Shown piece after piece: positions 48,292 to 51,790 of a stretch of DNA of 64,000 nt (positions are counted from its first letter, which is position 1; every line of letters begins with the position of its first letter). The stretch comes from Escherichia coli (GTDB taxonomy: Bacteria; Pseudomonadota; Gammaproteobacteria; Enterobacterales; Enterobacteriaceae), in the NCBI RefSeq assembly GCF_016903815.1, contig NZ_CP069973.1; one strand, 5' to 3'. Under the pieces are notes generated by a model. It was not told where the DNA came from. It saw nothing but the letters and a program-made list of their open reading frames with translations, and searched no databases. The position numbers and the translations under genes were made by a program.

Positions 48292-48452
48292 CAACGGTTT
48301 GACGTACAGACCATTAAAGCAGTGTAGTAAGGCAAGTCCCTTCAAGAGTTATCGTTGATACCCCTCGTAGTGCACATTCCTTTAACGCTTCAAAATCTGT
48401 AAAGCACGCCATATCGCCGAAAGGCACACTTAATTATTAAAGGTAATACACT
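48292..48452 (+). promoter_or_regulatory. cspA long 5' UTR (cold-box / thermosensing leader)
   Basis: Leader beginning ACGGTTTGACGTACAGACC..., about 160 nt before the ATG; matches the cspA leader as I recall it. Confidence 0.7.
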
Positions 48453-48665
48453 ATGTCCGGTAAAATGACTGGTATCGTAAAATGGTTCAACGCTGACAAA
48501 GGCTTCGGCTTCATCACTCCTGACGATGGCTCTAAAGACGTGTTCGTACACTTCTCTGCTATCCAGAACGATGGTTACAAATCTCTGGACGAAGGTCAGA
48601 AAGTGTCCTTCACCATCGAAAGCGGTGCTAAAGGCCCGGCAGCTGGTAACGTAACCAGCCTGTAA
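48453..48665 (+). CDS. cspA: major cold-shock protein CspA
   Basis: 70-aa [24 protein letters not shown]... Confidence 0.95.
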
Positions 48666-48693
48666 TCTCTGCTTAAAAGCACAGAATCTAAGA

Positions 48694-48721
48694 TCCCTGC
48701 CATTTGGCGGGGATTTTTTTA
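48694..48721 (+). terminator. rho-independent terminator of cspA
   Basis: GC hairpin (ccctgcc...ggcgggg) followed by TTTTTTT. Confidence 0.7.
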
Positions 48722-49090
48722 TTGGATAAACCGCTTTATATGTAGAGAAGAACAGTCCCAGGAACAATCCAGATCCGGCACCGGAATGTCGCAATCACGA
48801 CAGACCGCACCATCGCACCCGGAACAATCACAATTATTATTCTTCTTTTTACGTATTACCTCGTTCAGGTGTTGCTTCTGCCTGATTGTCTGTGCCGCAA
48901 GTCGGCAATCTGCAAAACGCTGACGTATCTCGCCCCAGCCTGCAATAACACCTTTCTGTTGAATAATCTCTTTGACTGCTCCCGAACATCCCTGCGTTTG
49001 GTACAACACACTGTAAGCACAGCGGTATCCTTTGCGAGGAGAAAGGTGTCGTTGATAGAGCATTATCAACAGTAAAAGCAGTTTATTCAT
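48719..49090 (-). CDS. YidD/DUF37-like small protein with Cys-rich C-terminal tail
   Basis: 123-aa ORF; ATG at 49088..49090 with GGAG 5 nt upstream; N-terminal YQRHLSPRKGYRCAY... resembles the YidD signature; C-terminal CDCSGCDGAVCRDCD...CSWDC. Confidence 0.5.
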   Translation of the reverse strand: MNKLLLLLIMLYQRHLSPRKGYRCAYSVLYQTQGCSGAVKEIIQQKGVIAGWGEIRQRFADCRLAAQTIRQKQHLNEVIRKKKNNNCDCSGCDGAVCRDCDIPVPDLDCSWDCSSLHIKRFIQ

Positions 49091-49245
49091 GAAGGCTCCG
49101 AACCATTCCTGTTCCCGATTAAAAACTTATCTAATAGCCAAATCCATTCGTATTTAAAAAAACATTCATTAAAGAAATAAATTTGGGTGCAATGAGAATG
49201 CGCAACGCCGTAAGAAAGGCGGGAATAACTTCCCGCCAAAGACTC

Positions 49246-49398
49246 TTACTCTTTCAAATTGCAGGCTAAAAATGCCGCCAGCTCATAACTCCCCTGTTTA
49301 ATATGCAATTCACACAGTGAATCTCTTATCATCCAGGTGAAAAATAAAAGCGTGCAACAAATCACTATTAAAGAAAGTAATCTATATTTCTGCGGCAT
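49246..49398 (-). CDS. hokA: Hok-family type I toxin
   Basis: 50-aa ORF MPQKYRLLSLIVICCTLLFFTWMIRDSLCELHIKQGSYELAAFLACNLKE. Confidence 0.85.
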   Translation of the reverse strand: MPQKYRLLSLIVICCTLLFFTWMIRDSLCELHIKQGSYELAAFLACNLKE

Positions 49399-49458
49399 TC
49401 CCAGCCCCCTGTGTTGATTTCCAACGAGTAAGAGGCTAACCTTATGGTGTTCAGGCAT
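49246..49458 (-). CDS. mokA: mok-type overlapping reading frame (modulator of hok translation)
   Basis: 70-aa ORF in frame with and extending hokA upstream, as in hok/mok/sok loci. Confidence 0.5.
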   Translation of the reverse strand: MPEHHKVSLLLVGNQHRGLGMPQKYRLLSLIVICCTLLFFTWMIRDSLCELHIKQGSYELAAFLACNLKE

Positions 49459-49500
49459 AGGGTAGCCTCACTTTGATTTATAGTCAGGTGGGGCTTTTCT
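49437..49500 (+). ncRNA. sokA: putative Sok antisense RNA
   Basis: Plus-strand hairpin (agcctcac...gtggggct) plus T-run at 49464..49500, antisense to the mok start region; 5' end not determined. Confidence 0.35.
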
Positions 49501-49676
49501 CTGTCTGCCTTTCGGTGAATACCTGAGACAAACAGTCTCAAGCACCCGTGGCTATTCTAGCTTAATAAGTTCGTTTCTTCTCCTTGATATAATCCTAAAA
49601 AAATCTCATAAAATTAATATATGAGATAATCTTTATTCAGCAGAAGATTATTAAAGGTTGCTGTATTATTTAGCGA

Positions 49677-49708
49677 TAAAAAAAGCCTGCCAGATGGCAG
49701 GCTTTTTA
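49677..49708. terminator. bidirectional rho-independent terminator downstream of glyS
   Basis: Stem agcctgcc/ggcaggct flanked by an A-run and a T-run. Confidence 0.7.
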
Positions 49709-49720
49709 ATAACGGCGTTA

Positions 49721-51790
49721 TTACTGTAACAGCGAAATATCCGCAACGCGCAGGAACAGTTCGCGCAGTTTCTCCAGCATGGTCAAACGGTTGATACGCA
49801 ATTCTTTGTCATCAACCATGACCATCACTTTATCGAAGAAGGCATCAACCGGTTCACGCAGCTCAGCCAGTTCGACCAGCGCATCCTGGTAACGACCTTC
49901 AGCAAAGTACGGCTCCAGTTTATCGCGCAGCACAACCACCTGCATCGCCAGTTTAATTTCTTCCGGCTCTTTCAGAGTAGAAGCATTCACGCGATCGCTC
50001 AGCACTTCGTCAGACTTCGCCAGAATGTTAGATACACGTTTGTTCGCCGCCGCCAGTGCAGCAGCTGCATCCAGGGTACGGAAGTGCGATACCGCCTTCA
50101 TACGGGCATCGAAATCTGCCGGACGAGTCGGACGACGCGCCAGTACCGCCTGGATGGTGTCAACGGTGTAACCTTCGTCCTGATACCAGGCGCGGAAGCG
50201 ACCGAGCATAAAGTCGATAACATCATCAACCACGTTGGCATTAGTCAGCTTATCGCCATACAGACGCACTGCTTCTTCGGTCAGCGTTTGCAGATCAAGG
50301 TTGAGGTTCTTCTCAACGATAATACGCAGTACGCCAAGTGCGGCACGACGCAACGCAAACGGGTCTTTGTCGCCTTTCGGATGCTGGCCGATACCGAAGA
50401 TACCCGCCAGAGTATCCATCTTGTCAGCAATCGCCAGCGCACAGGCTACCGGGTTAGACGGCAGGTCATCACCGGCAAAGCGCGGCTGATACTGCTCGTT
50501 CAGCGCCACTGCAACATCTTCCGCTTCGCCATCGTAACGCGCGTAGTGCATCCCCATAACGCCCTGGGTGTCGGTGAACTCGAAGACCATGTTGGTCATC
50601 AGGTCGCACTTGGACAGCAGGCCCGCACGGGTTGCGTGGTTAACGTCAGCGCCAATCTGTTCAGCAATCCAGCCAGCCAGCGCCTGGATGCGGTCAGTTT
50701 TGTCGCGCAGTGTACCCAGCTGTTGCTGAAACAACACGGTTTGCAGGCGCGGCAGGTTATCTTCCAGACGTTTTTTACGGTCGGTGTTGAAGAAGAACTC
50801 GGCATCCGCCAAACGTGGACGAACGACTTTCTCGTTACCAGAGATAATTTGCTGCGGATCTTTCGATTCGATATTGGCAACGAAGATAAAGTTCGGCAGC
50901 AGTTTGCCGTCGTTCGCATACACCGGGAAGTATTTCTGGTCACCTTTCATGGTGTAAACCAGCGCTTCAGACGGCACCGCAAGGAATTTCTCTTCGAATT
51001 TTGCGGTCAGCACAACCGGCCATTCCACCAGCGAAGCCACTTCTTCCAACAGGCTTTCGCTTAAGTCAGCGTTACCGCCAATCTTACGCGCCGCTTCTTC
51101 GGCATCGGCTTTAATCTTCGCCTTACGTTCTTCGTAATCGGCGATGACTTTCCCGCGCTCACGCAGAATTTCCGGATACTGATCGGCATTGTCGATAGTG
51201 AATTCCGGCTCGCCCATAAAGCGGTGGCCGCGAATCACGCGATCGGACTGAATGCCCAGAATGGTAGCCGGAATAACTTTGTCGCCCAGCAGCAGGGTCA
51301 CGGTGTGCACCGGACGCACGAAGTGCACGTCGCTTGCGCCCCAACGCATCAGTTTCGGGATCGGCAGTTTCGCCAGCGAAGTCGCAACCATATTCGGCAG
51401 CAGTGCTTCGGTGCTTTCGCCCTTCACGTGGGCGCGATACAGCAGCCATTCGCCTTTATCGGTAGTCAGACGCTCAGCCTGGTCAACGGTAATACCGCAA
51501 CCACGCGCCCAGCCTTCTGCCGCTTTGCTCGGTTTGCCTTCAGCGTCGAACGCCTGAGCAATCGCCGGGCCGCGTTTTTCGATTTCACGATCCGGTTGCG
51601 CTTCCGCCAGGTTAGCTACTTTCAGCGCCAGACGACGCGGAGCAGCAAACCATTGAACGGCGCCGTGTGCGAGGCCAGCGTTATCCAGCTCCGCAGTAAA
51701 GTTCGCAGCAAAGGACTCAGCCAGGCTGCGCAGTGCTTTTGGTGGCAGCTCTTCAGTGCCGATTTCCACCAGAAAAGTTTTCTCAGACAT
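49721..51790 (-). CDS. glyS: glycine--tRNA ligase beta subunit
   Basis: 689-aa ORF. Confidence 0.95.

Follow-up and report, generated by a model that had tools for sequence, protein, structure and literature searches.

Genes and RNA elements between cspA and glyS

The window, by which we mean the whole 64-kb stretch of Escherichia coli DNA that was analysed, carries a hokA gene on its minus strand between cspA and glyS, together with an overlapping mokA frame and, on the plus strand, a predicted antisense RNA gene, sokA (Table 1). Positions 48660-49725 were 100% identical to E. coli strain 7/2 (NZ_CP023820), in which hokA is annotated and the gene order reads yiaG, cspA (PGAP label cspE), yidD, hokA, glyS. 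The hok reading frame, which had been proposed in the original prediction, was identified independently by the Pfam family PF01848 (HOK_GEF), matched by residues 5-46 of the 50 residues of HokA with 79.3 bits against a cut-off of 22 (E = 1.5e-22). The mok frame was found to overlap hok as proposed, in the form of an in-frame N-terminal extension and not as a different frame. Its ATG lies at 49456-49458 with a GAGG 8 nt upstream. A small plus-strand ORF at 49198-49269 (MRNAVRKAGITSRQRLLLFQIAG) overlaps, in antisense, the end of hokA at its stop codon and the 3' hairpin of the mRNA; it is the counterpart of ysaE in K-12 records and is listed as "hypothetical protein" in strain 7/2.

Table 1. Positions of the hokA/mokA/sokA features and of the adjoining segment in the window
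Feature	Position	Strand	Basis or remark
hokA ORF, 50 aa (MPQKYRLLSLIVICCTLLFFTWMIRDSLCELHIKQGSYELAAFLACNLKE)	49246-49398	-	Pfam PF01848, codon-position pattern
hok start codon ATG	49396-49398	-	
hok stop codon	49246-49248	-	
mokA ORF, 70 aa, in frame with hokA	49246-49458	-	ORF list
Predicted SokA RNA, ~53 nt	49450-49502	+	Folding; 5' end by homology
Predicted sokA promoter, -35 TTGATT	49414-49419	+	Homology; 17-nt spacer to -10
Predicted sokA promoter, -10 TAACCT	49437-49442	+	Homology
Predicted hokA promoter, -10 TAGAAT	49554-49559	-	Position and homology to R1
Predicted full-length hokA mRNA	49175-49547	-	5' end from R1 hok +1 homology and Rfam model start; 3' end approximate
tac, mRNA nt 1-12 (GGGUGCUUGAGA)	49536-49547	-	Pairs with fbi (full-length) or ucb (truncated)
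ucb (AGCCCCAC)	49488-49495	-	Pairs with mok SD region (full-length) or tac (truncated)
mok Shine-Dalgarno (SD) region (GUGAGGCU)	49464-49471	-	Folding; invariant in orthologue alignment
dcb (AGCCUC)	49432-49437	-	Rfam consensus structure
GC-rich 3' hairpin (GGCGGGAAGUUAUUCCCGCC + UUUCUU)	49218-49237	-	Terminator-like in scan
fbi (UCUCAUUGCACCC)	49185-49197	-	Pairs with tac
451-bp segment with yidD-like gene	48724-49174	-	Directly 3' of hokA mRNA; 58 bp here in most E. coli

The plus-strand sok hairpin that had been put forward was recovered by folding at 49461-49502. The predicted SokA RNA consists of an 11-nt 5' tail (UUCAGGCAUAG), this long hairpin and a U-run (UUUUCUCU), with a fold z-score of -4.2, and Sok of plasmid R1 folded alongside gave the same layout of tail, hairpin and U-run. 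The predicted sokA promoter matches the location of the R1 Sok promoter TTGCGC-17-TATCCT. Its -35 hexamer is invariant in the orthologues described below, and its -10 hexamer, TAACCT in the window and TATCCT in R1, retains T1, A2 and T6 in all of them. For hokA, the -10 box lies 6 nt upstream of the predicted +1 (49547) and TAGAAT was kept in all orthologues displayed; a convincing -35 could not be recognised. A generic sigma-70 scan detected neither of these two promoters. This miss was not counted against them, because the R1 hexamers TTGCGC and TATCCT also fail the thresholds of the scan. The interval given in the original prediction took in the ORFs and sokA and fell short of the whole locus, whose predicted mRNA extends from 49547 to about 49175.

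Predicted two-state fold of the hokA mRNA

The elements of the mRNA were placed by homology with an R1-type hok/sok locus combined with RNA folding. The Rfam family RF01794 matched 49396-49547 (minus strand) from end to end with 124.9 bits against a gathering score of 59 (E = 2e-29), which is far beyond chance. This family is named "sok antitoxin" but is modelled on the leader strand of the hok mRNA and ends at the hok AUG, so that its strand call should not be taken as that of an antitoxin gene. Two groups of sub-threshold Rfam matches were disregarded: those at 49618-49820 (STnc370, STnc430, SurA, rnk_pseudo, Phe/Trp leaders) are centred on the glyS terminator hairpin, and the others, at 48638-48723 (rnk_pseudo, anti-hemB, NsiR1), coincide with the cspA terminator.

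The predicted full-length mRNA (373 nt) folded with a minimum free energy of -138.7 kcal/mol (z = -6.9). In this structure the 5' segment GGGUGC..UGAGA pairs with the 3' segment UCUCA..GCACCC, and ucb pairs with the mok SD region. Removal of the last 37 nt switched the fold to tac/ucb pairing, with release of the SD region and a z-score near -7. A closed full-length form and an open form after 3' trimming are textbook hok behaviour (PMC9841398). By analogy, the full-length hokA mRNA would be stable and shut by the 5'-3' pairing of tac with fbi, with ucb masking the mok ribosome-binding site. With the 3' end trimmed as far as the GC hairpin, tac would become available to ucb and the mok SD would be exposed, and the hairpin presenting it would be both the translatable form and the target of SokA. 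SokA, a predicted cis-antisense RNA of ~53 nt encoded across the mok start on the other strand, would then block translation of mok and hence of hok.

Orthologues were collected by an exact match to the first 26 nt of the leader, which found 14 species representatives; the alignment of 15 orthologues covered Escherichia, Klebsiella, Kluyvera, Pseudocitrobacter and two further Enterobacteriaceae. The full-length fold was 92.3% paired over the 15 orthologues, compared with 40-45% in slid-partner controls, and contained 12 compensatory pairs. Within it, the tac/fbi helix was 99.4% paired with changes from G-C to G-U only, so its support is conservation and not covariation; as the 26-mer query fixes mRNA nt 1-26, covariation in the tac arm cannot appear in this collection. 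The helix of ucb with the mok SD region was 94% paired, and the 3' GC hairpin was 100% paired with 3 compensatory pairs. For the truncated fold, the tac/ucb helix was 100% paired. The helix of dcb with the mok SD region, which closes the SokA-target hairpin in this form, was 90.8% paired with 2 compensatory pairs, and the alternative 5' domain as a whole (tac/ucb plus SD/dcb) was 94.7% paired, the two compensatory pairs lying in the SokA-target hairpin.

The coding parts were compared in the same orthologues. Conservation at the three codon positions of hok was 0.88/0.92/0.78, and this relaxation of the third position fits selection at the protein level. A mok ORF was found in all intact orthologues; in the codons belonging to mok alone the values were 0.92/0.90/0.90, and since the third position is not relaxed there, the constraint acts on the RNA and not on the peptide. 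The elements of hokA/sokA are present in the sequence, give the predicted folds and have been conserved across genera, with compensatory changes. That a chance ORF and chance hairpins should simulate a gene system has a negligible probability and is excluded by the Rfam and Pfam E-values, the fold z-scores near -7 and the presence of syntenic orthologues in five genera.

The window locus shares with R1 (parB) hok/sok the Hok/Gef toxin, the overlapping mok, a Sok that is here a predicted cis-antisense RNA covering the mok start, the 5'-3' lock of tac and fbi, ucb, dcb and a GC hairpin, the counterpart of the one that ends the processed R1 hok mRNA. The two differ in that the window locus is chromosomal and syntenic whereas R1 hok/sok is plasmid-borne, that mok is in frame with hok, unlike in R1, and that the terminator hairpin after fbi, present in R1, is absent.

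Insertion elements, synteny and the 3' flank

The statement that the interval from cspA to glyS is free of IS elements held. Allowing 3 mismatches, no IS150 ends were found in the whole window; no IS-like repeats were found in 48600-49800, and between cspA and glyS the only further ORF codes for a YidD-like protein and not for a transposase. The sequence runs without a break through 49380-49600, and the site at which K-12-type IS150 is inserted (49469-49473) is not interrupted. The statement that K-12 carries an IS150 between cspA and glyS was also correct, and both sequence comparison and published data (PMC11551753) place the element between hokA and glyS. In the alignment K-12 hokA/sokA::IS150 has the same flanking genes as the window, but where the window is contiguous it has a 1.44-kb IS150 and a 39-bp deletion. 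The deleted bases, 49431-49469 of the window, comprise the sokA -10, the 5' part of SokA and the mok SD and ATG. K-12 HokA further departs from that of the window in G36E and N47K and carries F15. These data agree with the reported disruption of sokA by IS150 in MG1655 (PMC11551753). In K-12, IS elements, point mutations or rearrangements have put the five hok loci out of action, whereas hokA (hok-6) of strain NRG857c is IS-free (PMC7232551).

Among 5426 complete E. coli genomes, the mok/sok/leader region (49380-49600) was uninterrupted in 2800; with a longer query able to bridge an IS1, the count in the same genome set was 2828. The IS-free state is therefore not special to the window genome. 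In the remaining genomes the breaks cluster at 49469/49470. In a second common class IS150 points the other way and is simply inserted, with 3 bp (49471-49473) duplicated. An IS-free hokA is in fact already known, having been described and tested in 1999, and its occurrence here is real but ordinary.

IS150-group elements were seen in several taxa at one AAG trinucleotide of the SokA hairpin and mok SD region (window 49469-49473). The cases comprise E. coli, in two orientations and once with the 39-bp deletion, Salmonella enterica arizonae, with a different IS (transposase part 66% identical), and Klebsiella grimontii, represented by the junction only. Their distribution suggests that the AAG site is a sequence- or structure-specific insertion hot spot.

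In all 14 species representatives hokA directly follows glyS. The order of the block is glyS, hokA, an ABC-F ATPase gene (kept or lost), the yidD-like gene (kept or lost), cspA and yiaG, and the synteny glyS-hokA-(ABC-F)-(yidD-like)-cspA was seen in Klebsiella, Kluyvera and Pseudocitrobacter. This conserved block identifies hokA as an old syntenic resident and not a recent acquisition. Decay of hokA is frequent: the copy of Escherichia sp. E1V33 is frameshifted, that of Kluyvera genomosp. 3 contains a stop codon and that of one K. spallanzanii genome is truncated at its 5' end; K. aerogenes lacks the gene, and in S. enterica arizonae an IS3-family element is inserted and hok has been deleted.

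On the cspA side the window is unlike K-12 by virtue of the yidD-like ORF (48719-49090, minus strand), which was missing from the original prediction. It encodes 123 aa with a Cys-rich C-terminal tail and scored 26.5 bits with Pfam YidD, just under the cut-off of 27. The 451-bp segment that carries it is kept in 112 of the 5426 complete genomes, and the 58 bp found in its place in most E. coli are unrelated to it. Homologues of the yidD-like gene with 52-62% identity adjoin cspA in Klebsiella. The possibility that the segment is a mobile insertion disturbing hokA was considered and rejected, because repeats do not flank it, every genome that carries it has it at one and the same chromosomal site, and it shows synteny in Klebsiella; the same features argue for an ancestral segment that most E. 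coli have lost by deletion.

In the Klebsiella and Kluyvera orthologues, fbi is followed after ~25 nt by a canonical terminator. In E. coli alleles, including that of the window, no intrinsic terminator was found after fbi, and the next feature on that strand of the window is the yidD-like gene. A 539-aa ABC-F type ATPase gene lies between hokA and the yidD-like gene in Klebsiella, Kluyvera and relatives (1280-2899 in one compared sequence) and is absent from Escherichia and Pseudocitrobacter; its loss took away the terminator after the hokA fbi. Farther along, the gene at 48453-48665 (plus strand) is labelled cspE by RefSeq/PGAP in most E. coli records, yet its location is that of cspA and it falls within a full-length match to the Rfam cspA thermoregulator (48293-48720, 500.8 bits).

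Expected activity of the uninterrupted locus

With the R1-type elements all present, the locus is very probably a wild-type, uninterrupted chromosomal hokA/mokA/sokA type I toxin-antitoxin system. No inactivating change in the fold-back elements or the sokA promoter, which the original prediction had named as the finding that would speak against it, was visible in the window. Transcription, 3' processing, instability of SokA and killing at this locus are only inferred. The suggestion that the system may be functional stood as far as the integrity of its elements is concerned; as regards killing, it is set against the report on the E. coli C allele discussed below. "Intact" is supported for the window locus, "functional killer" is unproven, and the locus is not demonstrably "active".

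The hokA of E. coli C is in the same position and is likewise IS-free. Its leader, sokA and promoter (49399-49600) are identical to those of the window, which makes the test of that allele, the only experimental one, the best available predictor for the window allele, the transfer from one to the other being inferred. Within the mRNA the two differ only at 49355 (F15C), 49255 (synonymous), 49238, 49202-49203 and 49175, whereas the whole 3' flank differs. The majority E. coli allele is almost identical to the window over 49175-49620 and has the 58 bp in place of the 451-bp segment. According to the account of Pedersen & Gerdes (1999) given in bioRxiv 10.1101/2025.08.07.668861, the IS-free hokA of E. 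coli C, unlike R1 hok/sok, conferred no plasmid stabilisation, and neither post-segregational killing nor activation by rifampicin was seen. Going by this allele, post-segregational or rifampicin-triggered killing would not be expected from the window locus.

A fully active killer in this lineage, in which loss or depletion of SokA leads to synthesis of Hok and to death or arrest of the cell, nevertheless deserves consideration. All elements are intact, the hok frame is under purifying selection at the protein level across genera, and the repeated IS disruption at a single site fits selection against an active toxin. In addition, the HokA peptide is toxic on overexpression (Pedersen & Gerdes 1999, as cited in bioRxiv 10.1101/2025.08.07.668861), and one chromosomal copy of R1 hok is enough to kill when Sok is missing (PMC9841398; bioRxiv 10.1101/2025.08.07.668861). 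However, the hokA promoter looks weak, and the E. coli C allele with its identical leader, sokA and promoter gave neither killing nor rifampicin activation. Because of the latter result we consider an active killer unlikely.

Less probable still is a locus that is intact in outline and has been disabled in this lineage, either by F15C or by the replaced 3' flank, with read-through into the yidD-like gene disturbing the full-length 3' end. Codon 15 of HokA (window 49355), in the transmembrane helix, encodes Cys in the window and F or L in the 14 other orthologues, and the Cys15 allele is a minority one, its exact 31-mer occurring in 283 of the 5426 complete E. coli genomes; F15, however, is not known to be essential. 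The altered flank begins 10 nt 3' of fbi, at the junction of the 451-bp segment, and no terminator was seen before the yidD-like ORF. Against an effect of the flank, fbi and the following 10 nt are unchanged, and the majority E. coli allele is likewise without a nearby terminator.

We tentatively propose, as a possibility on the weaker side, that the uninterrupted hokA is no relic. It would have been passed on vertically as a resident of the interval between glyS and cspA in Escherichia, Klebsiella, Kluyvera and Pseudocitrobacter, selected on both its peptide and its two-state RNA switch, with IS150-group elements disarming it repeatedly at the same AAG in different genera and its transcript possibly entering the yidD-like gene in this lineage. 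If hokA is indeed kept under selection, a host function other than plasmid-style killing would be implied.

As a discovery the IS-free locus carries little weight. Its practical value lies in annotation, since K-12 is the atypical case here. Studies of native hokA/sokA would be better served by a strain of the window type or by E. coli C, and the element map shows targets for mutation. The synteny across genera and the common IS insertion site provide modest context for the role of chromosomal hok loci. One further arrangement was observed between glyS and cspA: in Pseudocitrobacter faecalis, three complete hokA-type loci lie in tandem, ~453 bp apart (949-2228 of the compared sequence).
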